A stretch of 64,000 nt of DNA from contig CAWDKS010000008.1 of assembly GCA_963802965.1 (NCBI GenBank), forward strand, positions 5,053 through 69,052, written 5' to 3'. This DNA comes from an uncultured Verrucomicrobiae bacterium. GTDB lineage: Bacteria > Verrucomicrobiota > Verrucomicrobiia > Limisphaerales > UBA11358. The position numbers and the translations under genes were made by a program. Below, in pieces: positions 2,744 to 48,522 of this stretch. Position 1 is the first letter of the stretch, and each line of letters begins with the position of its first letter. The notes under the pieces were generated by a model. That model was not told the DNA's origin. It did no database searches and was given only the letters and a program-made list of their open reading frames with translations.

Positions 2744-3262
2744 GTGAATAATCAATTGTTCCAACTGTCCATCCGCACGCCGGATGGCCAATTCATCGCG
2801 CGTTATTCCGCCAAAGGATTGGCTGAACTGAAATTCCCACGGGTAGGGTCGGCGCGCTGCGCCGACCGGACATCGCAGCGCGATGTCCCTACCAACAAAA
2901 TCCCCGCCCAAATTCTCCGCTGGCATCGCGCAACGGCGGCCGGACTGAAAAGTTCCCTGGCCGGACGCAAACCGAAAAACCTGCCGCCGCTGGATTTGGA
3001 AGGAACAGAATTTCAAAAAAGCGTCTGGAACGCGCTACGGAAGATTTCCACCGGTCGGACGAAAAGCTACGGCGAAATCGCGCGGGCGGTTGGCAAGCCA
3101 AAAGCTGTTCGCGCCGTCGGTGGCGCGTGCGGCGCGAATCCGATTCCGGTTCTCGTGCCCTGCCACCGTGTGCTGGCTGCGCAAGGAAAAATCGGCGGGT
3201 TTGGCGGCGGATTGGATTGGAAACGCAACCTGCTCGCACGCGAAGGCATTTCGTTTCGGTAG
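2744..3262 (+). CDS. ogt: Methylated-DNA--protein-cysteine methyltransferase
   Basis: GTEFQKSVW, SYGEIA, RAVGGA and PCHRV active-site motifs; carries an in-frame REP-like insert. Confidence 0.93.
   Translation: MNNQLFQLSIRTPDGQFIARYSAKGLAELKFPRVGSARCADRTSQRDVPTNKIPAQILRWHRATAAGLKSSLAGRKPKNLPPLDLEGTEFQKSVWNALRKISTGRTKSYGEIARAVGKPKAVRAVGGACGANPIPVLVPCHRVLAAQGKIGGFGGGLDWKRNLLAREGISFR
2842..2893 (+). repeat. GTAG-type REP doublet, family A, in frame in ogt
   Basis: GGTAGGG...CCCTACC termini with two hairpins; translated as VGSARCADRTSQRDVPT; siblings at 8428 and 19108. Confidence 0.88.
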
Positions 3263-3287
3263 GGCGCGTCACTCCGTGCGCGCCGTT
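3258..3287 (+). repeat. GTAG-type REP, family B; supplies the ogt stop codon
   Basis: GGTAGGGCGCGTCACTCCGTGCGCGCCG; reverse complement occurs inside metH at about 57521-57549. Confidence 0.8.
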
Positions 3288-3294
3288 AGCAGTT

Positions 3295-3894
3295 ATGATA
3301 GAATTATTTTCTTCCGACAAAGCTATGGGGTACCGCCTTTTGGTTGGCGTCTTCATGTGTTTAATGCTGCCATTTGCGAGCCTTTTCCTATCCGCCAGAG
3401 TGCGAAACAAACTCGGAACGCGTGGGGTCATTGCAGGATTGATTCTACTATTAGTCGTTATTCCAGTCGTGCTGGCGATCACCGCACCTGTATGGCTTGA
3501 GTCGCCCTATATTCGTTTCACGCATAAAAACCAAAAGTATTATGCCGAGATTTCCAGGGCCTCTGATTTGCTGCTACAGCAACACACGACTTTCTACAAA
3601 CATTCGGAGCCACTTTCGCAACAGCATCCCAAAACTGATTTTCATTGGATAGATACAAACGACGTTGTCTGGGATATGATTGCCCTTTCAGGGCAAGATC
3701 CGACGCTTCCCAAGACCATCCGCCGACTACATCCATACCAAATCCTTATTGCACCCAATCATGTTAGTATCTGGATCGGTGTCAGACCTGACTACACGAT
3801 AAATTGGGACCAAGATGAGACGAAAACCAACTCTTGGACTCTGACGTGCGGCGGTGAAGGAGTGGGGGAAAGCCTTTATGTCGAAACGAGGTAA
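3295..3894 (+). CDS. Hypothetical membrane-anchored protein, lower GC
   Basis: Open frame with two N-terminal hydrophobic segments; visibly more AT-rich than its neighbours; start at 3295 is inferred. Confidence 0.55.
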   Translation: MIELFSSDKAMGYRLLVGVFMCLMLPFASLFLSARVRNKLGTRGVIAGLILLLVVIPVVLAITAPVWLESPYIRFTHKNQKYYAEISRASDLLLQQHTTFYKHSEPLSQQHPKTDFHWIDTNDVVWDMIALSGQDPTLPKTIRRLHPYQILIAPNHVSIWIGVRPDYTINWDQDETKTNSWTLTCGGEGVGESLYVETR

Positions 3895-3946
3895 CAAAGC
3901 CACGACGACTGGCTGCTAATTTTCCTTTCTTTGTCTTTGCCAACGT

Positions 3947-4954
3947 TCACCCTGCCGTCAAGCGGATGATTTCACGCAATGATGTTTGAGGTTTGAAATT
4001 TACGAACCGTTCCAGTTTTTTCACCAGCGGCTTGCGTCGCCGCATGTCATCAAATCCGGGCGAATACGCCTCGTCGTAAGGAATCAGTTTAATCTTCGAT
4101 TTTGAGCCGAGCGTTTTGACCACCAATCGCGCGAGTTCGAGGATGCTGATTTCCTCCGTGCCGCCGATGTTGAAAATTTCGCCGAGAACACTTTGGCATG
4201 AGAGAGCTGGCGTCCCGCCGGCGTTTTGAGTTCGCAGGCGGGACGCCTGCGCTACTTTTTGCAAACGCACCAACGCTTCCACCGCGTCATTCACCAGACA
4301 AAAACATCGCGTCTGCCTGCCGTTGCCAAAGACTTTCAGCGGTTCATTCTTTTTCGCTGCCGCGATGAAGCGGGGCAGCACCATGCCGTAACGCCCGGTC
4401 TGGCGCGGGCCGACGGTGTTGAACAGCCGCGCGATGGTGACTGGCAGGTTTTTTTCGCGCGCGTAGGCCAGCGCGAGAAATTCGTCGGTGAGTTTCGAGC
4501 ACGCGTAGCTCCAGCGCGATTGCCCCGGCGGGCCGATGAGCAAATCGTCGTCCTCGCCGAACGCCGGCTTTGCGTTCTTGCCATAGACTTCCGAGGTCGA
4601 GGTCAGCAGGAGCGGCGTGCGGTTCGCGGCGGCGGCGCGCAGCAAAATCTGCGTTTCGTAAAAACTCGCCTCCAAAACGTGCAGCGCGGATTTGACGACG
4701 AGTTCAACGCCAACGGTCGCGGCCAGATGAAAAATAAATTCCGCGTTCGCCGCCAGTTTTGGCAATTCGGCGCACGTGGAAATTTTGGATTCAATCACGC
4801 GCAGCCGCGGATGGTTTCTTACCGTGCGCAGATTTTCCAACCGGCCGGTTGAAAAATCGTCAATGACGACGACACGATTGCCGTTGGCCAGCAGTTGCTC
4901 GACCAGGTGCGAGCCGATGAAGCCGGCTCCTCCTGTGACAAGGATATGTTTCAT
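3947..4954 (-). CDS. NAD-dependent nucleotide-sugar epimerase/dehydratase
   Basis: MKHILVTGGAGFIGSHL, TSTSEVYG, YACSK (YxxxK), RLFNTVGPRQ. Confidence 0.92.
   Translation of the reverse strand: MKHILVTGGAGFIGSHLVEQLLANGNRVVVIDDFSTGRLENLRTVRNHPRLRVIESKISTCAELPKLAANAEFIFHLAATVGVELVVKSALHVLEASFYETQILLRAAAANRTPLLLTSTSEVYGKNAKPAFGEDDDLLIGPPGQSRWSYACSKLTDEFLALAYAREKNLPVTIARLFNTVGPRQTGRYGMVLPRFIAAAKKNEPLKVFGNGRQTRCFCLVNDAVEALVRLQKVAQASRLRTQNAGGTPALSCQSVLGEIFNIGGTEEISILELARLVVKTLGSKSKIKLIPYDEAYSPGFDDMRRRKPLVKKLERFVNFKPQTSLREIIRLTAG
4201..4255 (-). repeat. REP-like palindrome, family C, in frame in the epimerase
   Basis: GTAGCGCAGGCGTCCCGCCTGCG...GCCGGCGGGACGCCAGC; peptide VAQASRLRTQNAGGTPAL. Confidence 0.75.
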
Positions 4955-5099
4955 TCGCTGGACGGGTGAAACATCCAATTGATCGTAGCGGCGTCCCGGC
5001 AGAGCGCCGCTAATTTCAAAAAATTCGAGAATGCGGCTCTCTGCCGAGAAGCCGCTACGCCATCTCCGAATTTCGATTCGCCGATGTAACGGTTCGTTT

Positions 5100-6203
5100 T
5101 CATTTGAGCGCGGCAGCGATCGCCTCCGCCAGTTTCTGCCGGTAGTCCGCGCTTTCAATCCGCTTTGCCTCCGCCGGATTCGAGAGGTAGCCGTTTTCAA
5201 CCAAAACCGCCGGACAATTTTGGCCGCGCAGCACTTCGATGTAGCGCACGTGGCGCACGCCGCGGTCTTCCATTCCCGTCGCGCGCAGCAACGCGGTTTG
5301 CAGCTTTACCGCGAGTTGCAGATTTTGCGCGTCAAAATCGTTGCTCGACAATTTTTCCCGCCACAAATCGGCGTAACCGCGCGTGCCGGTCGAGGGCATT
5401 CCGGTCGGAGTGAAACAATAAGTTTCCAGGCCGGCAATGTTCTCGTCCCGGTCGGGCGTCGCATTGAAATGCAGGCTGATGAACAAATCCGCGCGATGCG
5501 CCGTGGCGAAAACGGGGCGGTTGGAATTGGCCACGTAGCTGTCGTTCGTGCGCGTGAGAAACACCGTCCAGCCGTTTGTTTCGAGCAGCGGCTTGAGGCG
5601 TAGCGCCGTGTCGAGCGTGAATTCCTTCTCGAACCGGCCGTCGAGCACGCTGTGCGTGCCGGTATTGCTGCCGCCGTGGCCGGGATCAATCACGATGACG
5701 CGGTTGGTGCCGAACATCAACGGCGGGTCGCACAAAAGCGGTTCAAGATTTCTCCGCAAATCGAGTTCGTGCAGAAAAATCTGATTGTCAATGAGCTGCG
5801 GTTCAAAGCCCAGGTTGATTTCGATGCCGTTCCAGGTCGCTTCGCGGCTGCCGATTTCCAAAACCATCGCGCCGTTTGTCGAACCGATGGCATACGCGGC
5901 CACCGGCAGGCCGGACAGCAAATGCGGCGCGCCGATTTTGTGTTCGACGGCCCAGCGGCTGAGCGAAGTCCACGTTAACACCGGCGCGGGACGAGCGGCG
6001 TTCGCCGGGTGAACGACCGGCGGCAGGGATGTTTTGACGACCGGTGTGCTGGGACGAGGCGGTTGCGGCATTTGCGGCTTTTGAACTTCATTGGTCGCGG
6101 GCCAGTTGGGCGGCAGCGGTTCGTTGGGGGCGCTGCGCGGCGTGGTCGCGCAGCCCGCCAAAAAAAACGCCGCGATGAAAATGAGGCCAGCCGGTTTTAA
6201 CAC
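5100..6203 (-). CDS. N-acetylmuramoyl-L-alanine amidase (Amidase_3), lipoprotein
   Basis: Lipobox LAGC; IDPGHGG, EK, TR, SLHFNA and PAVLVENGYLSN motifs. Confidence 0.9.
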   Translation of the reverse strand: MLKPAGLIFIAAFFLAGCATTPRSAPNEPLPPNWPATNEVQKPQMPQPPRPSTPVVKTSLPPVVHPANAARPAPVLTWTSLSRWAVEHKIGAPHLLSGLPVAAYAIGSTNGAMVLEIGSREATWNGIEINLGFEPQLIDNQIFLHELDLRRNLEPLLCDPPLMFGTNRVIVIDPGHGGSNTGTHSVLDGRFEKEFTLDTALRLKPLLETNGWTVFLTRTNDSYVANSNRPVFATAHRADLFISLHFNATPDRDENIAGLETYCFTPTGMPSTGTRGYADLWREKLSSNDFDAQNLQLAVKLQTALLRATGMEDRGVRHVRYIEVLRGQNCPAVLVENGYLSNPAEAKRIESADYRQKLAEAIAAALK

Positions 6204-6255
6204 GCGGCCATTGTGCGGCAGGCAAAACCGGACTCAAGCTGTTTCGAGTTCAATC

Positions 6256-6356
6256 CTCCTCGTCGTCGTCCTCGTTCTCGTAATCGAACTGTGGAATTCG
6301 AGGACGAGGACGAGGACGAGAACGAGGACGAGGACGAGAACGAGGACGAGGACGAG
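6256..6356. repeat. Hairpin of inverted hexamer tandem repeats (CTCGTC / GAGGAC)
   Basis: Left arm 6256-6287; right arm (GAGGAC/GAGAAC)n at 6298-6356. Confidence 0.85.
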
Positions 6357-6401
6357 CGGGATGGGTTGCTCGTTTGAAACGGCTCGGTCATAATCCGGCC
6401 A

Positions 6402-6959
6402 GTGAAGATCTTGGTTGCCATCACCGGAGCCAGCGGCGCGCTTTATGCGCAACGCCTGCTCGATAATCTCGACCCGCGCCGGCATGAATTGAATGTCGTG
6501 ATAAGCCATTACGCGCAGCAGGTCATTGCCGGGGAATTGCCCGGTGGCCTGCGCCTGCCCGCCGGGGTCAGGACGCACAACCTCAAGAGCATGAACGCGC
6601 CGTTTGCCAGCGGGTCGAATCCGCCCGACGCCATGGTCGTCATCCCCTGCACCATGGGCACGATGGGCCGCATCGCGCACGGTTACAGCGAGGACGTGCT
6701 GCTCCGCGCCGCCGACGTGGTGTTGAAGGAACGGAAAAAATTGGTTTTGGTCCCCCGCGAAACACCGTTAAGCCTCGTTCACGTCAAAAACATGGAACTG
6801 TTGCTGCAGGCTGGGGCGACGATTCTGCCGGCGAACCCGGGGTTTTACTCGAACCCGAAAACCGTCCAGGACGTGGTGGACACCGTGGTGGCGCGCGTGC
6901 TGGATCATCTGGGCCTGCCGCAAAAGCTCGTGCCGCGCTGGTCGGAAGAAAAAGAATGA
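6402..6959 (+). CDS. ubiX: Flavin prenyltransferase UbiX
   Basis: ILVAITGASG, APFASGS, PCTMGT, RAADVVLKERKKLVLVPRETP. Confidence 0.95.
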   Translation: MKILVAITGASGALYAQRLLDNLDPRRHELNVVISHYAQQVIAGELPGGLRLPAGVRTHNLKSMNAPFASGSNPPDAMVVIPCTMGTMGRIAHGYSEDVLLRAADVVLKERKKLVLVPRETPLSLVHVKNMELLLQAGATILPANPGFYSNPKTVQDVVDTVVARVLDHLGLPQKLVPRWSEEKE

Positions 6960-6963
6960 AGAC

Positions 6964-7048
6964 TTAACGCGGAGGCGCAGAGAACGCAGAGTTGAAATGA
7001 AAAATCTTTGCGTTTCTTTCTCTACGCTCTCTGCGCCTCTGCGATGAA
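6964..7048. repeat. Hairpin of inverted 9-mer repeats (CGCAGAG-type)
   Basis: TTAACGCGGAGGCGCAGAGAACGCAGAG ... CTCTACGCTCTCTGCGCCTCTGCGATGAA. Confidence 0.8.
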
Positions 7049-7060
7049 GAAAATTCACCG

Positions 7061-7957
7061 ATGATTCAGATATTACAAAAATGGGGCGGGTTCGTCCGCT
7101 TCTCGCACACGGTCTTCGCGCTGCCGTTTGCGCTGGCGGCGATGATGGTGGCGGCGCGCGATAACCGTGGCTGGCCGGGCTGGAAAATTTTCGGACTGAT
7201 TCTCGCGGCGATGGTTTGCGCGCGAACGTGCGCGATGGCGTTCAATCGCATCGTTGACCGCAAATTCGACGCGCTGAATCCGCGCACGGCCAGGCGCCAC
7301 TTGCCCGCCGGACAAATTTCACTGACGAGCGCAATCGCGCTTTGCCTGTTGAGTGGCGTGGGATTGGTCGTTACCAGCCATTTTCTGAATCCACTGTGCT
7401 TTTATTTGTCGCCCGTCGCATTGGTGGTGGTTTGTTTTTATTCGTTCACGAAACGGTTCACGGATTGCACCCACGTTTTTCTCGGAATTTCACTGGCGCT
7501 CGCGCCGGTCGGCGCGTGGCTGGCGGTGAAAGGCGCGGATGTTTCCGTTCTGGAAATTTTGCAGATGACCGCGCTCGCGCTGGCCGTGGTTCTGTGGCTG
7601 GTCGGTTTCGACATCATTTACGCGCTGCAGGATTACGAGTTCGACAAGGCGCACGGGCTGCGCTCGCTCGTCGTGGCATGGGGACCGAAGAACGCGCTGG
7701 CGGCCGCGTTTCTGGCGCACATGATGATGTGCGGATTGCTGGTGCTGTTCGGACTGCTCTGTGGATTTCGCATCGCCTATTTCCTCGGCTGGTTTGTCAT
7801 CGTCGGCTGCCTCGTGCTGGAGCATTGGATTGCCCGCCGCCGCAGCTTGAACTGGATCAATCTCGCCTTTTTCCGCCTGAACGCGCTCGTCAGCGCCGTT
7901 TTTCTGATCGTCACCGCCGCCGAAGTGATTTTTCAAGGCGGATTCAAGCTGCGCTGA
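7061..7957 (+). CDS. mqnP: UbiA-family prenyltransferase of the futalosine pathway (MqnP-like)
   Basis: FSHTVFALPF, NRIVDRKFDALNPRT, YSFTKRFT, GFDIIYALQDYEFD; mqn gene context. Confidence 0.85.
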   Translation: MIQILQKWGGFVRFSHTVFALPFALAAMMVAARDNRGWPGWKIFGLILAAMVCARTCAMAFNRIVDRKFDALNPRTARRHLPAGQISLTSAIALCLLSGVGLVVTSHFLNPLCFYLSPVALVVVCFYSFTKRFTDCTHVFLGISLALAPVGAWLAVKGADVSVLEILQMTALALAVVLWLVGFDIIYALQDYEFDKAHGLRSLVVAWGPKNALAAAFLAHMMMCGLLVLFGLLCGFRIAYFLGWFVIVGCLVLEHWIARRRSLNWINLAFFRLNALVSAVFLIVTAAEVIFQGGFKLR

Positions 7958-8005
7958 CCGCAAACGCGAATTTGCCAAACGCGCAATTTCTGCTAATCCT
8001 GTCGC

Positions 8006-9238
8006 GTGAATTTTTTTATTCAACGCAGCGAATTGCGCGACCTCTACGACAAGGTCGCCGCCGGGGAGCGCATTTCCGAGGCCGACGCGCTGCGGCTGTT
8101 TGAATCCAAAGACCTGAACGCCGTCGGCGCCATCGCGGATTTTGCGCACCAGAAAAAAACCGGCAACAACCGCGCCAGCTACATTATCAACCGCTACGTC
8201 AACTACTCGAACTACTGCATCCTGTCGTGCCAGTTCTGCTCCTTTGCGCGCAAGAAACGCGACGCCGACGGCTTCCAATTCACGGTTGACGAAATTGTGC
8301 AAAAGGCGCGCGAGGCGTTGAAGCTCGGCATTACCGAATTGCACATCGTCGGCGGACTGCATCCGTCGCTGCCGTTCAGCTATTACACGGACATGCTCAA
8401 GGCGCTGCGCGCTTTGAATAATGAAATGGTAGGGTCGTCGCGCTGCAACGACCGGACGGCGCAGCGCGCCGTCCCTACCCAGCGCCTGCAATTGAAATGC
8501 TTCACCGCCATAGAAATTTTGCACCTCGCCTGGCTCGCCAAAAAATCCGTCGAGCAGACGTTGATTGAATTGAAAGATGCCGGACTGGATTCGCTCACCG
8601 GCGGTGGCGCGGAGATTTTCCGCAAGGAAGTCCGTTCGGCCATCGCCAAAGGCAAGGAATCCGCCGAGGAATATCTGGACGTGCATCGCACCTGGCATCG
8701 CATGGGCGGGCGCAGCACCTGCACGATGCTTTACGGCCACGTCGAATCACTGGCCGACCGCGTGGCCCATCTGCGGCAATTGCGCACGCTGCAGGACGAG
8801 ACGCACGGTTTCACCGGCTTTGTGCCGCTGCCGTATCAGCCGGAGGACAACGACATTCCTGTGGAGAATCCACCGACCGGCTTCGATTCGCTCCGCACCA
8901 TCGCCGTCAGCCGCATCTACCTGGACAACTTCGACCACGTCACCGCGTATTGGGTCGGCCTCGGCCTGAAGCTGGCGCAGGTGGCGTTGAGCTACGGCGC
9001 GGACGATCTGCATGGCACCATCATCGAAGAACACATCTTCCACATGGCCGGCGCGACCTCACCGCAGTTGCAGACGGAAGCGGACATGATCAAGGCCATC
9101 CGTGAAGCCGGACGCACGCCGATCCAACGCAACACCTTCTACGAGCCGATAAAAATTCTGGAAAACGCGCCAGAGCCCGAAGCGACGGAAAATTCAGTGC
9201 GTTCCAAGGTGCTGGAGGATAATCTGGCGACGGCATGA
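8006..9238 (+). CDS. mqnE: Aminofutalosine synthase MqnE (radical SAM)
   Basis: NYSNYCILSCQFCSF (CxxxCxxC), ELHIVGGLHP, GGGAEIF, TMLYGHVE, GTIIEEHIFHMAGA. Confidence 0.9.
   Translation: MNFFIQRSELRDLYDKVAAGERISEADALRLFESKDLNAVGAIADFAHQKKTGNNRASYIINRYVNYSNYCILSCQFCSFARKKRDADGFQFTVDEIVQKAREALKLGITELHIVGGLHPSLPFSYYTDMLKALRALNNEMVGSSRCNDRTAQRAVPTQRLQLKCFTAIEILHLAWLAKKSVEQTLIELKDAGLDSLTGGGAEIFRKEVRSAIAKGKESAEEYLDVHRTWHRMGGRSTCTMLYGHVESLADRVAHLRQLRTLQDETHGFTGFVPLPYQPEDNDIPVENPPTGFDSLRTIAVSRIYLDNFDHVTAYWVGLGLKLAQVALSYGADDLHGTIIEEHIFHMAGATSPQLQTEADMIKAIREAGRTPIQRNTFYEPIKILENAPEPEATENSVRSKVLEDNLATA
8428..8479 (+). repeat. GTAG-type REP doublet, family A, in frame in mqnE
   Basis: Peptide VGSSRCNDRTAQRAVPT; same architecture as 2842-2893. 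Confidence 0.88.
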
Positions 9239-9309
9239 CGCAGGACGTTTCGAAACCATACATCGGCCCGGCGCATTCTTTCCGCGCCGCGCCGGTCCGT
9301 TATCTAGCG

Positions 9310-10029
9310 ATGTCCCTGCTTTTGATATTGCTGCTGACCGGCTGCTCAACCGTGACAACGTATAAATCGAACATGGCTGCCGGACCAGCGAAGCCGCTTG
9401 GCTATCCCGTTCTCGTCTATACGGAGGACATGACGGTTCCCCGGCCGTGCGAGGTGATCGGGACGGTTTCCATCGGCGACAGCTACTTCACCATGATTGG
9501 TGGATCGGTCGAAAGCGAGATGGCAAAGGTGATGCGAACCGCCCGGGAAAAGGGCGCCGACGCCGTGCAGATGAAGTCGGTCGAAAAACCGGGTTTTTCA
9601 GATGCGAATTATCACCTGGTGGCCGACCTGCTCCGCTACACGGATATTTGGGAGACCATTGCCATTCCGGAGCAGGAGTTCGCCAATTATCTCGACACAA
9701 ACCGGCGGAACCTCGACCCGATTGAAGGGGTCTGGAACGGGAACGGACAGATTCCGCACCGCATCGGCATCATGAGAGATAATTCAAAGCCGGGCCGGGA
9801 TTTCATCGGCGTTATTCTTAACACGGAAAATCCGACGTGGCACAAAGGCTACAAAAAAATTGACATCCATCGCGGCCCCCAACCCGGAACCTACCTTTTC
9901 GACTACTACCTCGACGATTTCAGCAAACGGGAAACCACCATTATTTTGGGCGCGGGAATGACATTCACGCTGGCCATCCCGACATCTGATGAAAAAACCG
10001 ACCTCATCACCTATTCCAAGAACAGGTAA
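9310..10029 (+). CDS. Lipoprotein with a YbjQ-like (heavy-metal-binding-like) domain
   Basis: Lipobox LLTGC; PRPCEVIGTV...AREKGADAV. The ORF extends upstream to 9235, which may be a relic (see findings). Confidence 0.6.
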   Translation: MSLLLILLLTGCSTVTTYKSNMAAGPAKPLGYPVLVYTEDMTVPRPCEVIGTVSIGDSYFTMIGGSVESEMAKVMRTAREKGADAVQMKSVEKPGFSDANYHLVADLLRYTDIWETIAIPEQEFANYLDTNRRNLDPIEGVWNGNGQIPHRIGIMRDNSKPGRDFIGVILNTENPTWHKGYKKIDIHRGPQPGTYLFDYYLDDFSKRETTIILGAGMTFTLAIPTSDEKTDLITYSKNR

Positions 10030-10043
10030 TTCACGTAAATCCT

Positions 10044-10868
10044 TTGGACCATTCACCGACTGAAATGCCCGCCGCCGAAGTTCCAAAATTCCGCATCGGC
10101 TCGGTGCAATATCTCAACGCCGTGCCGCTCACGCGCGGCATCGAGGACCAGGTCATTTTCGCCACGCCCGCCGAACTCGCCGAAATGCTCCGGCGCGATG
10201 AACTCGACGCCGCGCTCGTCAGCACAGCGGAGGTTTTGCTCACCGACCGCTATGACATTCTCGACGGCGTTGCCATCGCGTCGCTGGGCGAGGTTTACAG
10301 CGTGCTGCTGGCTCATCGCCGGCCTCTCGCGGAGTTAAAGGAGATTTTCTGTCATACCGCGTCGCTGTCGGGCTTGAATCTTTTGAAGGTTCTGCTGGCG
10401 GAACGCGGGTTGAAGCCGGAATTCAAGCCGCTGCCCGACCCGCAAACGGCGGCGGAACACGACGCGGTGCTGCTCATCGGCGATCCGGCGATTGATTTCC
10501 AACGCTCCCGTCCGCCTTCGCGCGATTCCGGCGCGACAAGCACTCCGCACGAAATTTTCGATCTTGGCACGGCATGGTACGAACTGACCCATCTGCCGTT
10601 TGTGTTTGCCGTCTGGGCATTGCGACGCGGCATCGAGAACAAGGAACTGCGCCGCGAACTGCTGGAAGCCAGACAATTCGGCCTCGAAACGCTGGATTAC
10701 CTCATCGAAACCCGCGCGGAATACGACGAGAATTTCCGCCGGGATTACCTCGGCTGGCACGTGCATTACCACCTGGCCTCGGACGAAAAGCGCGGCATTG
10801 CGAAATTCGCAGAACTGCTCCAGAAACACGGGCTGGGGCCGGTGTTTGAACCAAAATATGTTTCGTAA
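10044..10868 (+). CDS. mqnA: Chorismate dehydratase MqnA
   Basis: RIGSVQYLNAVPL, LLIGDPAI, DLGTAWYELTHLPFVFAVW; start uncertain (10044 or 10065). Confidence 0.9.
   Translation: MDHSPTEMPAAEVPKFRIGSVQYLNAVPLTRGIEDQVIFATPAELAEMLRRDELDAALVSTAEVLLTDRYDILDGVAIASLGEVYSVLLAHRRPLAELKEIFCHTASLSGLNLLKVLLAERGLKPEFKPLPDPQTAAEHDAVLLIGDPAIDFQRSRPPSRDSGATSTPHEIFDLGTAWYELTHLPFVFAVWALRRGIENKELRRELLEARQFGLETLDYLIETRAEYDENFRRDYLGWHVHYHLASDEKRGIAKFAELLQKHGLGPVFEPKYVS
10510..10541 (+). repeat. CCGCCTT...CGGCGCGACA repeat, family E, in frame in mqnA
   Basis: Peptide RPPSRDSGATS; siblings at about 29333 and 47378-47446. Confidence 0.65.
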
Positions 10869-10871
10869 AAT

Positions 10872-10933
10872 GGGAGGGTCGCCGTGTCGGCGACCCAAAT
10901 TTTGTTTTGGGATGGCGACACGCCGTCCCTCCC
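10872..10933. repeat. GGAG-type REP doublet, family D, between convergent genes (possible terminator)
   Basis: GGGAGGG...CCCTCCC termini; siblings at 60130-60187 (in metH) and 37267-37290. Confidence 0.82.
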
Positions 10934-10934
10934 G

Positions 10935-11684: not shown

Positions 11685-11693
11685 GAGCGAAAT

Positions 11694-12663: not shown

Positions 12664-12686
12664 GTTAATAATTTTTGAAGCGAAAT

Positions 12687-13409
12687 CTAAGGACGGAATC
12701 GAATAGCTAACATTGTGACTTGTGTGTCACCATCGGGAAGATTTTTTATATCTTGCAACACAAGGGCATCAGCCTCTTTTGAAATAGCAACAGCGGCCAG
12801 TTGTTTGCCCGCCATTCCACTGCTTACGGTTGTGCCTAGAACATCGTAAGGTTTTTCTGGAGAATCAAAATAGCACGAAATACCGTTGATTATCTGCTTG
12901 GGAGATCCTGTTTTAATCGGCCAATCTTGTTGTTTTGCAGTATAAGGTGTGAAATCTATTTTAACAGGGAAGTTTGCCTGCTTGGTAATTTCATCGGCCG
13001 TTTCAAATTTGATGGCAGCATATCTGGCGGTGGTGGCATAGACAGGGACACTTACGGAAGTGCCAAAGGCCGATGCAAAATATGGGTTGCCGGAGGCATA
13101 GGCATTTCCAGTTGTTAGGTTTCCGCGATAAGAAGTATTGGCATCAATAAAAATAAGCGCGTCGGCACCTTTAGACTTGGCGATGCGGGCTGCATCGAAA
13201 CGATCGCGCGTATTAAGTTCGCCAATTATCTTATACTCTTTACTGGGCGCGCTGGAATAAATTGGAATAGCAAGCCCTTCAGTTTCGACTGCGGCGTAGA
13301 TTCCAGTTCTGCCAACTAAAGGTTGTTCCATTGGTGCGAAAACCGTGCGAGGGTTGTAAGCGCAGCCAGCCAATAAGGCAGTTGAAAATGCAAAAATGAT
13401 AATTTTCAT
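12687..13409 (-). CDS. Low-GC lipoprotein with two YbjQ-like repeats
   Basis: Lipobox LAGC; PSKEYKIIG...AKSKGADALI and PEKPYDVLG...AISKEADALV; AT-rich. Confidence 0.62.
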   Translation of the reverse strand: MKIIIFAFSTALLAGCAYNPRTVFAPMEQPLVGRTGIYAAVETEGLAIPIYSSAPSKEYKIIGELNTRDRFDAARIAKSKGADALIFIDANTSYRGNLTTGNAYASGNPYFASAFGTSVSVPVYATTARYAAIKFETADEITKQANFPVKIDFTPYTAKQQDWPIKTGSPKQIINGISCYFDSPEKPYDVLGTTVSSGMAGKQLAAVAISKEADALVLQDIKNLPDGDTQVTMLAIRFRP

Positions 13410-13434
13410 ACGAACTTGTTTTGGATTTTCAGTT

Positions 13435-13830
13435 TTAGTAGCCGCCTTTGCCCTTTTGGATCAATTCGATTTCGTAGCCTTCCGGCGCGTCAACGAACGC
13501 GAAGACCGTGCCGGTGGAAGTGGTCGTCGGGCCGTCGGAATATTTCAGGCCGTGTTTTGCCAGATTCCGGCCGAACTCCTCAAGGCTGTCCACCTCGAAA
13601 GCCAGATGCGTGAGGTCGGGCTGCACCTGCACCGGGCCGCCAGCCGGAAAACTGCAGATTTCAATCTCTTCGTCGCTGGCGGGCGCCTTGAGAAAAACGA
13701 GTTCGGAGCCGCGCGGCGATTTGTGCCGCTTGATTTCCTGAAGGCCCAGCACGTCGCGGTAAAACTTGAGGGTGCGTTCCAGATCGTTCACGCGGTAGCG
13801 CGTGTGCAGCAGCTTGTTGACCTTGCTCAT
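13435..13830 (-). CDS. VOC family protein / lactoylglutathione lyase
   Basis: LLHTRYRVNDLERTLKFY, HLAFEV, APEGYEIELI. Confidence 0.88.
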   Translation of the reverse strand: MSKVNKLLHTRYRVNDLERTLKFYRDVLGLQEIKRHKSPRGSELVFLKAPASDEEIEICSFPAGGPVQVQPDLTHLAFEVDSLEEFGRNLAKHGLKYSDGPTTTSTGTVFAFVDAPEGYEIELIQKGKGGY

Positions 13831-13848
13831 GTGCGAAGTTTTAACAAG

Positions 13849-13933
13849 TCCAATGTCCAAAGTGCAATGTCCAAAGTGCGCCGCATTGTTTGACTTTGGA
13901 CTTTAGACTTTGGATTTTAGAGTTTAGAATTTG
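13849..13933. repeat. Hairpin of inverted heptamer repeats (TCCAAAG / GACTTTG)
   Basis: Four heptamers, a spacer, then six complementary heptamers between divergent genes. Confidence 0.8.
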
Positions 13934-13937
13934 ATTT

Positions 13938-14438
13938 ATGGGCAAACGCCGTGAAGCGCGCGAACGCGCCGTGCAATTTTTGTTTCAGCACGATTTGAAT
14001 CCGCCGGAGGATTTGGACCGGGCGCTCAATGAATTTTGGGACACACAACGCGCGGCGGCCATCGCCGAGGAAAAAGGCCCGGCGACGTGGGGCCAGCCCC
14101 ACGAACTGCCGCCGCCCACCGCCGGGGAGGCCGAGACGCGGTTGTTTGCCGACCCGCTCATCCGCGGCGTGGTCGAGCACCGCGAGGAAATTGACACGCG
14201 CATCCGGGGACACGCGAAAAACTGGGAGTTCCATCGCATCGCCACGGTGGACCGCAACATCATGCGGCTGGCGATTTACGAAATGCTGTTCCGCGAGGAC
14301 ATCCCGCCCATCGTCAGCATCAACGAGGCGGTGGATATTGCCAAAAAGTTTTCCACGCAGGACAGCGGCAAGTTCGTCAATGGCATCCTGGACAAGGTGA
14401 AGGGCGAATTGTTGCGCCCTGCCAGAATTGTGAAATGA
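13938..14438 (+). CDS. nusB: Transcription antitermination factor NusB
   Basis: RREARERAVQFLFQ, DRNIMRLAIYE, INEAVDIAKKFS, FVNGILD. Confidence 0.95.
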   Translation: MGKRREARERAVQFLFQHDLNPPEDLDRALNEFWDTQRAAAIAEEKGPATWGQPHELPPPTAGEAETRLFADPLIRGVVEHREEIDTRIRGHAKNWEFHRIATVDRNIMRLAIYEMLFREDIPPIVSINEAVDIAKKFSTQDSGKFVNGILDKVKGELLRPARIVK

Positions 14439-15280
14439 AATTCGCCGATCTCCATCTGCACACGAATTTTTCCGACGGCACGTTTTCGCCGGAGGAGCTG
14501 GCCGGACACGCCCAGCGGCTCGGCTTCGCGGCGCTCGCGTTGACAGACCATGATTCGGTCGAAGGCTGCGCGCGCATGGCGGCGGTTTGCGGCGCGGCGG
14601 GCATTGAATTTATCACCGGCACGGAACTCACCGCCGAGCACAACGACACCGAACTTCATCTGCTCGGCTATTTCGTGGACACGCAAAATGAAAAATTCCT
14701 CGTGGATATCGCCCGGTTCCAGGGCGTCCGGCAGGACCGCATCCGCGAGATGGTGGCGCGCCTCAACAAATTGAACGTGCCATTGGAGGTGGAAACCGTT
14801 TTTGCGCTGGCCAATTGCAAATCACCCGGACGCCCGCACGTCGCGCGCGCCCTCGTGCAGGCCGGGCTTTGCAAATCGCTCGACGAGGCGTTCGAGCGTT
14901 TTCTCAAAAAAAACCGTCCGGCGTGGGTGCCCAAGGCCAAGATGTCCGCGCTCGAAGGTGTCGAGTTGATTCATCAGGCCGGCGGGCTGGCGGTGATGGC
15001 GCACCCCGGCTTGAACCGCACGGACGATGTCATCCCCGTGCTCGTGGACGCCGGGCTGGACGGCATCGAATGTTTTCACACGAAACACTCGACGGCGACG
15101 TCCGCGCGCTATCTGGAAATCGCCGGCAAATTTCATCTGCTCGTGACGGGCGGCTCCGACTGCCACGGCTTCAGCAAGGGCAAACCGCTCATCGGCACCG
15201 TCAAGCTGCCTTATGAACACGTGGAAAAATTGAAGCAGAAACACGATGAAGCGTTGAAGAGTTTAAGCGTTAGACCGTGA
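14435..15280 (+). CDS. PHP-domain phosphoesterase
   Basis: DLHLHTNFSDG, TDHD, GRPHVARAL, AHP, TGGSDCHG. Confidence 0.92.
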   Translation: MKFADLHLHTNFSDGTFSPEELAGHAQRLGFAALALTDHDSVEGCARMAAVCGAAGIEFITGTELTAEHNDTELHLLGYFVDTQNEKFLVDIARFQGVRQDRIREMVARLNKLNVPLEVETVFALANCKSPGRPHVARALVQAGLCKSLDEAFERFLKKNRPAWVPKAKMSALEGVELIHQAGGLAVMAHPGLNRTDDVIPVLVDAGLDGIECFHTKHSTATSARYLEIAGKFHLLVTGGSDCHGFSKGKPLIGTVKLPYEHVEKLKQKHDEALKSLSVRP

Positions 15281-15319
15281 ACGCCGCTTCAACGCTTGAA
15301 CCCTTCAACGCTTTAACGC
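15244..15319. repeat. Hairpin of inverted octamer repeats (CGTTGAAG / CTTCAACG)
   Basis: Left arm 15244-15274 lies inside the PHP 3' end; right arm 15288-15319 abuts the ftsY start. Confidence 0.75.
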
Positions 15320-15320
15320 G

Positions 15321-16256
15321 ATGAATTTGTTCCAAAAATTCAAAGCCGGCCTGCAAAAAACCCACAGCCAGCTGGCCCGCGAAATTAAGCGCATCGTCAC
15401 GCGCTCGCCGAAGCTGGACGCGGCATCGCTGGAAGAACTTGAAGCCGCGCTCATTGCCGCCGACCTCGGCCCAACCGTGACGGCGCAGATCGTCGCCGCT
15501 GTCAAACAAGCCTACGAATCGCAGGGAACGACCGGCCACGACGTGTTCGCCATCGCGCGTGCTGAAGTCGAAAAGAATCTTTTGACGGACACGCCCGGCT
15601 TGATCAAGGCCGCGCATGGGCCGACCGTGGTTTCCGTCGTTGGCGTCAACGGCACGGGCAAGACCACCACGGCCGCCAAGCTCGCGCACCTGATTCAATC
15701 GCAGAAGAAAACCGCCTTGCTGGCCGCGTGCGACACGTTTCGCGCGGCGGCGATTGAGCAGATCAAATTGTGGGGACAACGATTGAAGGTCGAAGTCATT
15801 GCCGGCGCTTACGGCGCGGACGCGGCGTCCGTGGCGCACGACGCCGTCACCGCCGCGCAAGCGCGCAAGGCGGATTACCTCTTCATTGACACGGCGGGCC
15901 GCCTGCACACGAAGCACAACTTGATGCAGGAATTGCAGAAGCTCCATCGCGTCATCGGCAAGCAGCTCGCTGGCGCGCCGCACGAGGTGCTGCTGGTGCT
16001 CGACGCGACGACCGGCATGAACGCGCTGAACCAGGCGCGCGAATTCCACAAGGCCGTGCCGCTCACCGGCCTGGTGGTGACCAAGCTCGACGGCACGAGC
16101 AAAGGCGGCATGGTGGTGGCGATCCAGCAGGAACTCGGCCTGCCCATCAAATTCATCGGCCTCGGCGAGCAGCCGGACGATTTGCAGCCCTTCGATGCCA
16201 AACAGTTCGCGGAGGCATTGTTTGCGGATGAAGGATTCGCGGGCAAGCGCGATTGA
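15321..16256 (+). CDS. ftsY: Signal recognition particle receptor FtsY
   Basis: GVNGTGKTTT, DTFRAAA, DTAGRLH, TKLDGTSKGG. Confidence 0.96.
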   Translation: MNLFQKFKAGLQKTHSQLAREIKRIVTRSPKLDAASLEELEAALIAADLGPTVTAQIVAAVKQAYESQGTTGHDVFAIARAEVEKNLLTDTPGLIKAAHGPTVVSVVGVNGTGKTTTAAKLAHLIQSQKKTALLAACDTFRAAAIEQIKLWGQRLKVEVIAGAYGADAASVAHDAVTAAQARKADYLFIDTAGRLHTKHNLMQELQKLHRVIGKQLAGAPHEVLLVLDATTGMNALNQAREFHKAVPLTGLVVTKLDGTSKGGMVVAIQQELGLPIKFIGLGEQPDDLQPFDAKQFAEALFADEGFAGKRD

Positions 16257-16300
16257 GGCTTGTCCAAGGCAGTTCTGACCTATAGAAAATGCCCCAGCGC

Positions 16301-18508
16301 ATGAATCCATTCACCCGCCGCGTTTTATTTTTTCTTTTCTTTTTGTCCGGGTTTTGCGGACTCGTCTATCAAGTGGTCTGGACCCGGATGGCGTTCGCTT
16401 CGTTCGGGATCATCACCCCGGTGCTTTCCATCGTCCTCTCGGTGTTCATGCTGGGCCTGTCCGCAGGGGCCTGGGCCGGCGGACGATTCATCGTTCCATT
16501 GACCCGGAAAACCGGACTCTCGGCGGTCATCTTTTACGGGTCGGTGGAACTGGTGATCGGGCTGGGTGCCTTTGCGGTCCAGAAATTGTTTGCCTTGGGC
16601 GAACACTTGTTGCTGGGCACCGGCGAAACCAATTCCTTCGCCTACCTTTCACTATCGGCGCTGGTGCTGGCCGCCTCGATTCTGCCCTGGTGTCTTTGCA
16701 TGGGGACGACCTTTCCTTTGATGATGGCTTTCATCCGGGAGCGGGATTCCCGGAACACGGACAGTTTCAGTTTTCTTTATCTGGCCAATGTGCTCGGGGC
16801 GATGACCGGGACGTTCATGACAGCCATTGCCTGGATCGAGGTCATGGGGTTCCACCACACGCTCTGGCTGGCGGCGGCGGGCAACTTCACCATCGCGTTC
16901 ATCAGCTTCTGCCTGGGCTGGGAACAGCGGTTCGCCGCCATTCCCGCGGAAGCAACGGACCACGCCGAATCCTCCGCCGGTTCGTCCGCTCTCCCGGCCC
17001 GCCGGAACGGGATGACCCGTATGATCCTGTTCTCGACGGGTTTTGTGGCGATGGCGACGGAGGTGGTCTGGACCCGGGCCTTCACGCCGGTCTTGAAAAC
17101 GCAGGTTTATTCCTTTGCCCTGATCGTTTTCACTTATCTGGGGGCCACTTTCTTCGGTTCGTTGATGTATCGCCGAAACCTTCGGCAGCGGCGTTTGTTT
17201 TCAACGGTGGAATTGATTGCTGGTCTGACGGTGGCGGCATTTTTGCCCGTGCTGTTCAACGATCCCCGGCTGGTAACGGCTCACTGGGCCGGGTGGGCTT
17301 ACCCCCGCAGCGTGTTCATTCTGCTGGCCAGCATTTGTCCGTTCTGTGCCGTGCTGGGATATTTGACGCCGGGTTTGATTGACGGATACGCCACCGGTCA
17401 TCCGGCAAGCGCCGGTGCGGCCTATGCCATCAATGTCCTCGGCTGCATCCTGGGACCGCTTTTCGCCTGTTATATTCTGCTGCCCCATTTGAGCGAGCGC
17501 CACGCCTTGATTTTGCTCAACCTGCCGTTCGTGGTTTTTTTCATCCTGCTCGGCGGCCACCAATCCCGGCGGCGGCGCCTCGGCTGGGGACTGGCCATCG
17601 GCATCGTGCTGGCCTGCTCGCTGTTTGTCTCGGAAGACTTTGAAAACATGCTGTTCCGCAGCCAGAAACACACTGCGGTCCGGCGCGACTACGCTGCTTC
17701 GGTGATTTCCTTCGGCGAAAACCGGGACAAACATCTTCTGGTCGATGGCGTTGGCATGACGGGGCTGACTCCCATCACCAAGTTCATCGTCCACTTGCCA
17801 CTGGCTTTTCACATGGGCCGGCCCCAGTCGGCTCTGGTCATTTGTTTCGGCATGGGCACGACTTATCGTTCGGCTTTGAGCTGGAACATTGAAACGACGA
17901 CCGTGGAATTGGTGCCCAGTGTGACCAAGGCGTTCGGGTTCTATCACGCGGACGCGGACCGTTTCCTCACCAATCCTCTGGGTCACATCATCATCGACGA
18001 TGGCCGGCGCTACCTGAAACGGACTTCGAAAAAGTTCGACGTCATCACGGTGGACCCGCCGCCGCCGGTTGAAGCGGCAGGTTCCAGCCTCCTTTTTTCC
18101 AGGGAATTCTATGCCATCGCCCGGCAACACTTGAACCCCGGCGGTGTTCTTCAGATGTGGTTTCCCGGCGGGGAACTCCTCACCGAACAAGCCGTCATCC
18201 GGTCCATCCACGAGTCGTTTCCCCATGTTCGCTGTTTTCGTTCCGTGGAAGGATGGGGAATCCACTTGCTGGCTTCCTCGGAACCCATCGAACGACTCGA
18301 CGCGAATCAGCTCGCGGCGCGGATGCCCGAAAGCGCGAAGCAGGACCTTTTGGAATGGAACGACTCCCAGGATGCCCCGGCTTATATCGGGCGGGTTATT
18401 AACAATGAAGTTTCTGTCCCCGAGCTCCTCAACCCCGACCCTGAAGTCGAAGTCACCGACGACCAGCCCTACAATGAATATTTTCTGCTGCGAGTTCTGC
18501 TGCGTTGA
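16301..18508 (+). CDS. Fused multi-TM / spermidine-synthase-like protein
   Basis: SGFCGLVYQVVWTR and MGTTFP in about 12 TM segments, then a Rossmann-like domain (FGMGTT, VELVP, DDGRRYL, DVITVDPPPP). Confidence 0.8.
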   Translation: MNPFTRRVLFFLFFLSGFCGLVYQVVWTRMAFASFGIITPVLSIVLSVFMLGLSAGAWAGGRFIVPLTRKTGLSAVIFYGSVELVIGLGAFAVQKLFALGEHLLLGTGETNSFAYLSLSALVLAASILPWCLCMGTTFPLMMAFIRERDSRNTDSFSFLYLANVLGAMTGTFMTAIAWIEVMGFHHTLWLAAAGNFTIAFISFCLGWEQRFAAIPAEATDHAESSAGSSALPARRNGMTRMILFSTGFVAMATEVVWTRAFTPVLKTQVYSFALIVFTYLGATFFGSLMYRRNLRQRRLFSTVELIAGLTVAAFLPVLFNDPRLVTAHWAGWAYPRSVFILLASICPFCAVLGYLTPGLIDGYATGHPASAGAAYAINVLGCILGPLFACYILLPHLSERHALILLNLPFVVFFILLGGHQSRRRRLGWGLAIGIVLACSLFVSEDFENMLFRSQKHTAVRRDYAASVISFGENRDKHLLVDGVGMTGLTPITKFIVHLPLAFHMGRPQSALVICFGMGTTYRSALSWNIETTTVELVPSVTKAFGFYHADADRFLTNPLGHIIIDDGRRYLKRTSKKFDVITVDPPPPVEAAGSSLLFSREFYAIARQHLNPGGVLQMWFPGGELLTEQAVIRSIHESFPHVRCFRSVEGWGIHLLASSEPIERLDANQLAARMPESAKQDLLEWNDSQDAPAYIGRVINNEVSVPELLNPDPEVEVTDDQPYNEYFLLRVLLR

Positions 18509-18733
18509 TCTTCCCAACTCCCCTGGCAATTTTGATCCAGGCGAATGCCTTCCGGTTGGGAAACCTCAATTCCAGGGGCACACTCCCCTGAAGCGTTTTT
18601 CGGTGATGCAGATTTGTGATGTTCAAAATCCGTGCCCCTCCGTCCCGTATTGCGGGATCCGTGGTTGATTTTCATTCCGGCTCGCAACCCTTTCCGTTTG
18701 AGCCTGTTCCCGTCAACGGCTACGCTGCGCACG

Positions 18734-19984
18734 ATGTCTGACGCCCAATTCATGCGCCTCGCCCTCCGGCTCGCCCGGCGCGGCTACGGCGCGACTTCGC
18801 CGAATCCGATGGTCGGCGCGGTGCTGGTGAAGGGCGGAAAAATCATCGGACGCGGCTGGCATCGGCGCGCGGGCTTGCCACACGCGGAAATCGAGGCGCT
18901 CCGCAACGCGCAGAAGCGCGGCCACAATCCGCGCGGCGCGTCGCTTTACGTGACGCTCGAACCGTGTTCCACGCACGGTCGCACGCCGCCTTGCACGGAC
19001 GCCATCATCGCCGCCGGCATCAAACGCGTGGTTGTCGGCGCGGTTGACCCGAATCCGGAACATTCGGGGCGTGCTTTCAAAATTTTGAAACGCGCGGGAA
19101 TTGAAATGGTAGGGTCATCGCGTCCACCCTCCGCAGTACTGCTACGGAGGACGCGCTGCGATGACCGGACGGCGCAGCGCGCCGTCCCCACCCGGCTTGC
19201 CGACGAATGCGCCCGGCTCAATGAGGCCTTTAACCACTGGATTGTTTATCGCACGCCGTTCGTCATGGTCAAAGCGGCGATGACGCTGGATGGCAAAATT
19301 GCCACGGCCAGCGGCGAATCGAAATGGATCACCGGTGAAAAGGCGCGCACTTGCGCGATGAAACTACGCCAGGGCAGCGATGCGGTCCTCGTGGGCATCA
19401 ACACAATTTTGGCGGATGATCCGTCGCTGACTGTGCGGAGCGTAACGCCGAGCACCGTCTCGGCTCGAAACGAAGCCATGCCGCAACACGCCGAGGCGGT
19501 GCTTGGCGCTCCGGGATTGCGCCGGATCGTTCTGGATTCGCTGGCGCGAACGCCGTTGAAGGCGAAAATGGTGAGCGACAAATTCGCCAGTCTGACCACC
19601 ATCGTTGTAAGCAAACGCGCGCCCCAAAACCGTGTCACGGCGCTGGCGAAACGCGCGCGTGTCATCGTCGCCCCTCTGGCCAAATCGGCAACCGGCAACC
19701 GGCAACCGGCAATTGACCTGCGCTGGCTGTTGAAAAAGCTGGGTGGGGAAAACGTCACGAGCCTGCTGGTCGAAGGCGGCGGCGAGGTCAACGCGTCGTT
19801 CCTGCTCGGCGGCCTCGCGCAGCGCGCGGCGTTTTTTTACGCGCCGAAAATTCTGGGCGGACGGGATGCGCGGAAGGCCGTGGCCGGCGACGGCGCGAAA
19901 TTCCTGGCAGAAGCGCTCCCGCTTCAGGACGTGGAATGGAAACAACTCGGCCAGGATTTATTGCTGATGGCGCGGGTGGAGTAA
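18734..19984 (+). CDS. ribD: Bifunctional riboflavin deaminase/reductase RibD with three repeat-derived insertions
   Basis: SPNPMVGA, HAE, TLEPCSTHGRTPPC, TLDGKIA, SKWIT, LLVEGG; start at 18734 follows TTGAGC-N17-TACGCT. Confidence 0.95.
   Translation: MSDAQFMRLALRLARRGYGATSPNPMVGAVLVKGGKIIGRGWHRRAGLPHAEIEALRNAQKRGHNPRGASLYVTLEPCSTHGRTPPCTDAIIAAGIKRVVVGAVDPNPEHSGRAFKILKRAGIEMVGSSRPPSAVLLRRTRCDDRTAQRAVPTRLADECARLNEAFNHWIVYRTPFVMVKAAMTLDGKIATASGESKWITGEKARTCAMKLRQGSDAVLVGINTILADDPSLTVRSVTPSTVSARNEAMPQHAEAVLGAPGLRRIVLDSLARTPLKAKMVSDKFASLTTIVVSKRAPQNRVTALAKRARVIVAPLAKSATGNRQPAIDLRWLLKKLGGENVTSLLVEGGGEVNASFLLGGLAQRAAFFYAPKILGGRDARKAVAGDGAKFLAEALPLQDVEWKQLGQDLLLMARVE
19108..19192 (+). repeat. Family A REP doublet with a nested 33-nt palindrome, in frame in ribD
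   Basis: 52-nt family A element plus CCTCCGCAGTACTGCTACGGAGG inserted in the first loop. Confidence 0.85.
19436..19513 (+). repeat. GGAG-type palindrome in frame in ribD
   Basis: CGGAGCG..CCGAGCACCGTCTCGGC ... GCCGAGGCGGTGCTTGGCGCTCCG. Confidence 0.75.
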
Positions 19985-48435: not shown

Positions 48436-48441
48436 CTAAAT

Positions 48442-48513: not shown

Positions 48514-48522
48514 AAAATTAAA

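Follow-up and report, generated by a model that had tools for sequence, protein, structure and literature searches.

How does one palindromic repeat come to be read in the same frame inside three unrelated enzymes? The question is raised by a stretch of 64,000 nucleotides, the whole of which is called here the window (G000:C8:5053-69052), from the genome of an uncultured Verrucomicrobiae bacterium of the order Limisphaerales (3.30 Mb, 12 contigs, 58% GC). A 52-nt element, GGTAGGG...CCCTACC, lies within ogt-like, mqnE-like and ribD genes of this window. The explanation that we consider highly probable is that the copies are GTAG-type repetitive extragenic palindrome (REP) doublets, which were spread by a REP-associated tyrosine transposase (RAYT) and are translated in tolerant loops, and that the same loops are used again and again with turnover of element families. 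An earlier inspection of the letters and their translations, referred to below as the sequence-only reading, had reported the element in frame in the three genes and had quoted its stems; the element is indeed present at 2842-2893, 8428-8479 and 19108-19192, every quoted stem sequence is correct, and the gene names given are supported by Pfam families and solved relatives. The genes and elements concerned are as follows.

2744-3262, + strand: ogt-like gene, O6-alkylguanine-DNA alkyltransferase with a PCHRV site (open reading frame (ORF), translation, PF01035, the Ogt DNA-binding domain, with E 4.5e-35)
2842-2893, + strand: type-A REP doublet of 52 nt in ogt, hairpin 1 GGTCGGCGC/GCGCCGACC, hairpin 2 GGACATCGC/GCGATGTCC (83.4 bits on the doublet covariance model, CM R1)
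8006-9238, + strand: mqnE-like gene, aminodeoxyfutalosine synthase, radical SAM (ORF; Pfam Radical_SAM and CofH_C; PDB 6xi9 with E 1.5e-68)
8428-8479, + strand: type-A REP doublet of 52 nt, in frame in mqnE, encoding residues ~141-157 (covariance model, 81.3 bits)
18632-19984, + strand: ribD gene, deaminase and reductase (dCMP_cyt_deam_1 and RibD_C; PDB 2b3z, RibD/RibG, with E 1.6e-71); its true start is probably near 18734 (MSDAQF...)
19108-19192, + strand: composite element of 85 nt, in frame in ribD, a type-A REP doublet with a nested hairpin (covariance model, 63.3 bits)
19123-19155, + strand: nested 33-nt mini-hairpin (TCCACCCTCCG...CGGAGGACGCG) in the apical loop of hairpin 1 of the ribD REP

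The REP doublet, its family and its probable transposase

Each half of the doublet consists of a 9-bp GC-rich stem and a 3-nt loop, e.g., GGTCGGCGC-GCT-GCGCCGACC, and the halves are closed by GGTAG/CTACC. GGTAGGG heads are found on both arms at all three window sites. A pattern describing the 27-nt half-element has five matches in the window versus 0 expected, and none of 100 shuffles reached five; chance is therefore excluded. The ogt copy is in frame in the linker that precedes the C-terminal domain of Ogt, and the ribD copy lies at the junction of deaminase and reductase. The latter is 85 nt long because the 33-nt hairpin, which amounts to 11 extra codons, is nested in the loop of its hairpin 1. 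Among solved structures, the mqnE product is closest to the aminodeoxyfutalosine synthase 6xi9, and stem 1 of the mqnE copy carries a single C.A mismatch (GGTCGTCGC/GCAACGACC), which is the one addition to the stems quoted earlier. All three copies, each inside a long + strand ORF, are read as G/GTA/GGG and give VGSxRCxDRTxQRxVPT, namely VGSARCADRTSQRDVPT in Ogt, VGSSRCNDRTAQRAVPT in MqnE and VGSSR[PPSAVLLRRTR]CDDRTAQRAVPT in RibD (codons of the nested hairpin in brackets). The earlier statement that this peptide is always produced is true of the window, but not of the genome, where two other intragenic doublets of the same phase and opposite orientation give VGTARCAVRSSQRDDPA.

Further copies had been expected genome-wide, and the covariance model does place them: 11 loci score 49.9 bits or more, 5 of which are intragenic (ogt, mqnE, ribD, a GT9 heptosyltransferase and a SIS-domain protein) and 6 intergenic, several of the latter directly after stop codons. 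The ogt doublet is identical in 52 of 52 positions to an intergenic one (G000:C7:59249-59300), which lies in reverse orientation just past a stop codon; this identity may be taken as the best hint of recent copying. Elements of 100-136 nt that end in the same hairpins are the longer counterparts of the 52-nt doublet, and the wider GGTAGGG...CCCTACC superfamily includes other stems, named here types B, C and D. There are 80 GGTAGGG[AT]C heads in the genome, and 76 of the 89 superfamily candidates fold strongly. The copy number is moderate for REPs, which often exceed 100 per genome: type-A hairpin units number 64 and superfamily elements about 76 in 3.3 Mb, as counted in a 12-contig assembly that may under-assemble repeats. 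About 20 of these 76 elements are located inside Pfam-supported frames of core genes, each insert forming a discrete peptide block. Apart from the three window genes, the hosts are GlnE, GT9, alcohol dehydrogenase (ADH), MnmA, an Lpd-like oxidoreductase, UvrA, agmatine deiminase, lipoate ligase (LplA/B), a GlnRS-like protein, SIS, ArgRS, LigA, pyrimidine-nucleoside phosphorylase (PyNP), an ABC-F ATPase, NUDIX, MazG and a TPR protein.

The proposal that structure rather than peptide is conserved is borne out by covariation in two data sets. In seven aligned doublets (alignment A2), 96.4% of cells are paired, compared with 27-51% when the partners are slid, four stem pairs are changed on both sides, and the covariation score is 0.203 versus 0.091 after shuffling (0 of 500 shuffles). 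Single hairpins were gathered genome-wide by anchoring on the constant parts only (n=64). Complete pairing at all four variable positions of the stem is seen in 58 of them, and at least eight common stem variants occur; 247 of 256 variable-stem cells pair, whereas 2000 shuffles gave 173 on average and never more than 194. What the family keeps is pairing and not sequence, and the constraint acts at the level of the family. Orthologous copies decay in place, as seen in the C.A mismatch of mqnE and in the folding energies of relatives' copies, which range from -28 to -49 kcal/mol (at the MqnE site, -28.4 for L012 versus -49.4 for L097).

A search for a RAYT gene flanked by the window REP was successful. 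An ORF at G000:C1:173.8-174.2 kb (L007) contains the motifs PDHVHAL (HVH) and YILLNP and reaches 89.6 bits against NF047646, the family of REP-associated tyrosine transposases, whose cut-off is 80. Type A/E REPINs with the ACGG/CCGT and ACAT/ATGT stems of the window copies lie to either side of this ORF. Its HUH motif, catalytic tyrosine and score over the curated cut-off are those of a RAYT. Above the 80-bit cut-off there are five matches in the genome, and several others narrowly miss it. At least two further matches, at G000:C7:512.5 kb (L008, 81.8 bits) and G000:C3:950.5 kb (L006, 75.7 bits), have hairpins of another family at their flanks (GGGAGGGACGGCG...; GGGAGGGACGGCGTG.CGCCGTCCC), and this family has 44 motif matches in the genome. 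With its GT(A/G)G head, paired stem-loop, inverted doublet and a RAYT flanked by the same REPs, the window element is a GTAG-type REP doublet, i.e., a minimal REPIN, and the architecture is that of published REP/REPIN-RAYT systems; its location departs from the extragenic one that gave REPs their name but is not universal among them, since 5 of the 11 doublets are intragenic. It may be assumed that the RAYT, an HUH/Y1 transposase, recognizes the single-stranded hairpin and copies the element, and such recognition would explain why pairing is kept rather than sequence. The sequence-only reading had also spoken of an active hairpin-mobilizing system. A system is present, as the RAYT flanked by the same REPs indicates; its activity is only suggested, by the 52/52 copy and by occupancy that differs between species.

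Occupancy and turnover at loop sites

The copies in the window were compared with close relatives, represented by metagenome-assembled genomes (MAGs) of Verrucomicrobiota, Limisphaerales and Pedosphaera. The MqnE site, between ...LKAL(D/N) and RLQLKCF, carries an insert in 40 of 81 sequences and is empty in the other 41 (the own protein and 80 orthologues; the occupied ones comprise 39 parsed sequences and L119). Among 30 relatives' ribD loci, the site is empty in 12, holds two additional residues in 1 and an insert in 14, and could not be parsed in 3. At the Ogt site, a variable linker, one finds type A, type C, a third family (RRRRGNESQ...SSRRLLQ) or no palindrome, depending on the species. 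A loop of UvrA has 9-31 extra residues from diverse families in 21 of the 28 genomes parsed within the order and is short in 7, and elsewhere in the phylum it is short in all 21 parsed genomes. As many relatives have empty sites, the window copies are insertions and not ancestral sequence, which is what had been proposed. At the DNA level, a relative's contig of at least 90% likeness (run X2) has an empty mqnE site, where 8412-8482 is skipped and 9 nt lie between. The placement in loops proposed at the same time is supported too, because the inserts fall at gaps of 2-4 residues between structural elements of solved MqnE and RibD: residues 138-159 of MqnE stand opposite two residues of 6xi9, and residues 160-188 of RibD opposite four (134-137) of 2b3z. 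In the AlphaFold2 model of MqnE, residues 144-157, with a predicted local distance difference test (pLDDT) value below 50, are found between helix 124-143 and strand 162-167; the model is moderate (mean pLDDT 63.5) and was used only to place the insert between helix and strand. An intein, an intron, a CRISPR array and a tandem repeat were also considered and rejected on the basis of size, palindromy and dispersed copies. Some of the MAG records used (L094, L096, L102, L110, L116, L123, L151 and others) are titled Bifidobacteriaceae, Klebsiella, Limnocylindrales, Acidoferrum or Pseudomonadales; their MqnE is 77-88% identical to the own verrucomicrobial protein, and they are probably mislabelled bins.

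What fills the MqnE site differs from species to species. The 40 occupied sites hold at least ten recognizable palindrome families and four singletons, each of which folds strongly; among them are type A (VGSSRC...), type C (GRAALPRG...), type D (VGRAVPCPP...), GGTAGCAGCCGACGTGAGG... (GSSRREEAQ...SLLTSAAT), a family ending in ...HVGGYEK, CGTGVSPV..., GSAGILPA...RRQDAGAP and others. Inserts of at least 8 residues are confined to two internal positions of MqnE, this one, filled in 39-40 of the 81 sequences, and another, filled in 2. The other site follows own residue ~270 (...LQDEARANGFGVPASAGS...) and is filled in L132 and L142 only. In trees built from the insert-free MqnE protein, occupancy changes 11 times with FastTree, at least five changes being forced by well-supported branches, and 14 times with IQ-TREE in quick mode, while the family label changes 34-36 times. 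A single occupied clade is rejected by the approximately unbiased (AU) test (difference in log-likelihood 173, p 0.014), and copies of one family appear inside well-supported clades of empty sites (L115, L161). Occupancy is also a mosaic among genomes, e.g., MqnE is filled and RibD empty in G001 and the reverse is true of G013, which argues against one clade-wide event. Ahead of the element, different families have the non-native residues N-D-E-M in common; empty sites do not have these residues, and this points to replacement of content in an already modified site. Composite or nested states are present at sites in L101, L122, L060 and the ribD copy: L101 has an old decayed REP beside a fresh doublet, and a composite of half a REP and another family is seen in the Ogt of G022. 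The re-use of one intragenic site by many families is thus a notable hot-spot and turnover pattern, which is met at the RibD, Ogt and UvrA loops as well.

Two accounts of the re-use have to be weighed. According to the first one, an existing hairpin would attract further hairpin elements, on top of a strong filter for permissive sites in which genic insertions would survive only if they keep the frame, contain no stop and fall into a tolerant loop or inter-domain linker. Hairpin targeting would account for repeated insertion at a site that had been hit before. Taken to its end, this account makes particular loops of Limisphaerales core proteins docking sites, where hairpins of many unrelated families would enter, nest in and displace each other without loss of frame; we regard this as a tentative proposal, held with less than even confidence. 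If it is true, one insertion would seed a long-lived, self-renewing "cassette" position that rewrites a surface peptide, and a hairpin-targeted integration mode not described for REP/RAYT elements would be at work. The second account, to which we give a comparable standing, a real possibility that falls short of an even chance, assumes selection only: insertion is random, nearly all genic hits are lethal, and the one or two permissive loops of a protein fill up with no targeting. It agrees with the nature of the sites, which are loops or inter-domain linkers, with the mosaic occupancy at MqnE, RibD and UvrA, and with the result that no target motif was found in the flanks of 76 elements. It is also in line with the distribution of strong palindromes of any family, counted in a seed-based inverted-repeat scan (9-bp perfect seed) with triplet-shuffle controls. 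At a folding energy of -30 kcal/mol or below, about half of them lie in ORF interiors (178 inside and 196 outside; triplet-shuffled sequence gives 56-61 and 11-13), and at -40 or below the counts are 58 and 60, against 1-4 and 1-2. What selection alone explains less readily is the ratio of 40/81 at one position to 2/81 at any other in MqnE, a TIM barrel of ~390 residues with many loops, as well as the N-D-E-M flank common to different families and the nested and tandem composites. Targeting combined with the filter is therefore placed slightly ahead of pure selection, not decisively.

The nested 33-nt mini-hairpin (TCCACCCTCCGCAGTAnTGCTACGGAGGACGGG) bears on the same issue. Its family has 58 genome matches to a 10-nt core motif. 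It recurs in the apical loops of at least three host families, namely the type-A REP (GCG^CTG), type B/C and a GGGAGGG REP, and at one fixed internal position in a fourth family (GTAGCAGCC), sometimes with a second copy nested in itself. The nesting fits the idea of hairpins as targets for further hairpins, and we treat it as a lead, not as proof.

A host function of the inserts is improbable. The hairpin could pause translation at domain borders, bind gyrase or IHF, or stabilize mRNA, or the peptide could be useful at the surface. Many inserts do lie at domain boundaries (Ogt, RibD, UvrA, ArgRS, LigA, ABC-F), the sites stay occupied through the turnover of families, and repair genes recur among the hosts (Ogt, UvrA, LigA, Vsr, MazG, NUDIX), echoing the available text of Di Nocera 2013 (PMC3733652). 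However, about half of the orthologues have no insert at all, the peptides at one site are unrelated between species, and orthologous copies are allowed to decay, as is visible from the L012 and L097 energies given above and the mismatch in mqnE stem 1.

Reading frame and probable translation

All 40 occupied MqnE sites are open, in frame and without a stop, with 13-54 extra codons contributed by at least ten families, and the in-frame rule also holds for RibD, Ogt, UvrA and about 20 genes of the own genome. In this genome, the eight intragenic type-C copies (51/60 nt) all use phase 0 and read GGT AGG (GR...PT), and the 11 intragenic copies that belong to types A, B, D or E all use phase 2 and read G/GTA/GGG (VG...). 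The element's end is flush with a codon (...CCT ACC) in 19 of 20 own-genome copies, and the phase that contains TAG is never used. As two phases are open in each orientation, the phase bias is not forced by stops. It could come from the tolerance of the peptide, or from a flank preference together with codon-position composition; at the element ends a T...A preference was noted in 77 of 152 flanks.

Mitochondrial GC-hairpin "byp" elements are a precedent for ribosomal bypass, and the stability of the present hairpins, which reaches -28 to -50 kcal/mol for the 52-nt forms, makes it conceivable that the inserts are untranslated, because the hairpin is cut out of the mRNA or the ribosome skips it. 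In either case the frame would no longer be constrained, and thus the conservation of the frame argues, indirectly, for translation, which would yield Arg/Gly/Ser/Pro-rich peptides of 17-28 residues. With every one of the MqnE inserts a multiple of three and free of stops, the same behaviour at RibD, Ogt, UvrA and the own-genome genes, and the TAG phase unused, we judge the untranslated state very improbable. An ancestral, fast-evolving linker with incidental palindromy, for which the variability of the Ogt linker in all relatives including outgroups might speak, is already refuted by identical or near-identical 52-nt copies at unrelated loci, intergenic ones among them, by empty sites being the rule outside the order, and by a chance expectation of 0.

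Several observations weigh against the reading that RAYT-spread doublets are translated in loops which are then re-used. The gene calls of the own genome come from a crude, iterative, self-trained ORF model, the hosts having been checked with Pfam. In four runs against DNA contigs, neither a transposition event nor a presence/absence polymorphism within a population was seen, the only empty contig being that of the relative. The number of RAYT genes showed no clean relation to site occupancy in 41 relatives, and one genome (G018), which is only 77% complete, has occupied sites and no RAYT match. Resolution in the single-gene trees is poor, with 37 of 77 forks open, and the occupied group of the AU test was named after a tree was seen. 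No clear or consistent duplication of the target site, of the kind that marks MITEs, was seen when empty and filled MqnE sites were compared. As to targeting, apart from the missing target motif, the complementarity of flanks around the 33-nt element is weakly positive (10 of 73 at 9/10 or more versus 2.75% of random positions), and the composites of host and nested unit may themselves be what is copied.

Known systems and other palindromes of the window

The classic coding palindromes are those of Rickettsia. The Rickettsia palindromic elements (RPEs), a description of which is attributed to Ogata et al. in 2000, are reportedly palindromic repeats inserted into functional genes without breaking the frame, the phase being open in every case, and are presumed to lie in surface loops. 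In behaviour, and in behaviour only, they resemble the elements described here as in-frame coding palindromes. Unlike the present elements, RPEs belong to different sequence families, reside in an obligate intracellular host and have no GTAG head. Common descent reportedly accounts for most RPE insertions that are shared. The small dispersed repeats of heterocystous cyanobacteria, which Elhai et al. are said to have described in 2008, are reportedly very short mobile hairpins that nest inside other repeats, like the 33-nt element; the likeness is one of description only. Some RPEs have been classified as CGTC-type REPs in the part of the REP survey available (PMC3733652).

The closest parallel is found in the same phylum. 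According to the accessible text of Di Nocera, De Gregorio and Rocco (2013, PMC3733652), intragenic GTAG REPs are most numerous in Opitutus terrae, a verrucomicrobium, where more than half of the intragenic REPs are dimers or groups encoding 20-30 amino acids, with uvrA and DNA ligase among the hosts. The earlier statement that REPs are normally extragenic and coding palindromes known mainly from Rickettsia is thus incomplete, as intragenic GTAG REP dimers have been reported in that species (PMC3733652). The two cases agree in the phylum, in GTAG dimers within known genes, in UvrA and LigA as hosts and in a RAYT flanked by REPs. The present one differs, as far as the available text of that paper goes, by one codon position filled by different families, by a family-specific phase and by a nested smaller hairpin (PMC3733652). 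With the REPIN-RAYT systems of Pseudomonas, Stenotrophomonas and E. coli, as presented in the portions of the papers at hand, the elements share inverted doublets, the GTAG head, covariation, a RAYT flanked by its own REPs and several REP classes per genome (PMC2817692, PMC3116915, PMC3686654). Those REPINs are almost wholly extragenic in the same portions (PMC2817692, PMC3116915); here, genes contain 5 of the 11 doublets and roughly one quarter of the superfamily. A precedent for the replacement of REP classes at one locus is the "orthoswitch", in which different REP classes flank orthologous RAYT genes, as described in the available part of Nunvar 2013 (PMC3686654).

Intragenic GTAG REPs are therefore already known as a kind, if an uncommon one, and are found here in a new order; the re-use and turnover of sites are the part for which no published account was found. 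More exactly, no paper was found on the re-use of one intragenic codon position by many families, on a family-specific phase or on a 33-nt loop-nesting element, in a literature coverage that is incomplete with respect to subscription papers and supplements. The case extends the reshaping of proteins by REP/RAYT elements genome-wide, beyond Rickettsia, to a free-living soil lineage. It provides a natural catalogue of insertion-tolerant positions in MqnE, RibD, Ogt, UvrA, LigA and aminoacyl-tRNA synthetases, and the recurrent use of one codon position gives a handle on the unsolved question of how REPs select their targets and move. In practice, the inserts create long antisense ORFs, split database matches and odd "hypothetical" peptides, which distort annotation and alignment of Verrucomicrobiota MAGs. 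Long antisense frames, such as that of 416 aa opposite mqnE (window 7490-8740, - strand), are present genome-wide and would invite false gene calls; they are favoured because palindromes are open on both strands. Codon and dicodon models trained on all long ORFs were dropped, as they recovered the frame in only 65-74% of tests, the poor performance of such naive models being due to contamination of the training set by long antisense ORFs.

The window holds palindromes of other families. A fourth in-frame one (AGAGCTGGCGTCCCGCCGGCG / CGCAGGCGGGACGCCTGCGCT, peptide ...AQASRLRTQNAGGTPALS...) occupies 4203-4253 within a - strand gene (3950-5200) for a NAD-dependent epimerase/dehydratase, where it makes a 19-aa insertion relative to the solved 8vr2. 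Further long imperfect palindromes are situated at or near gene borders, at 6254-6343, 6968-7043, 13846-13924, 15244-15318 and 48441-48514, and the one at 13846-13924 (AAGTCCAATGTCCAAAGT...) resembles the ...SKVQSPKSK... inserts in relatives' UvrA loops.

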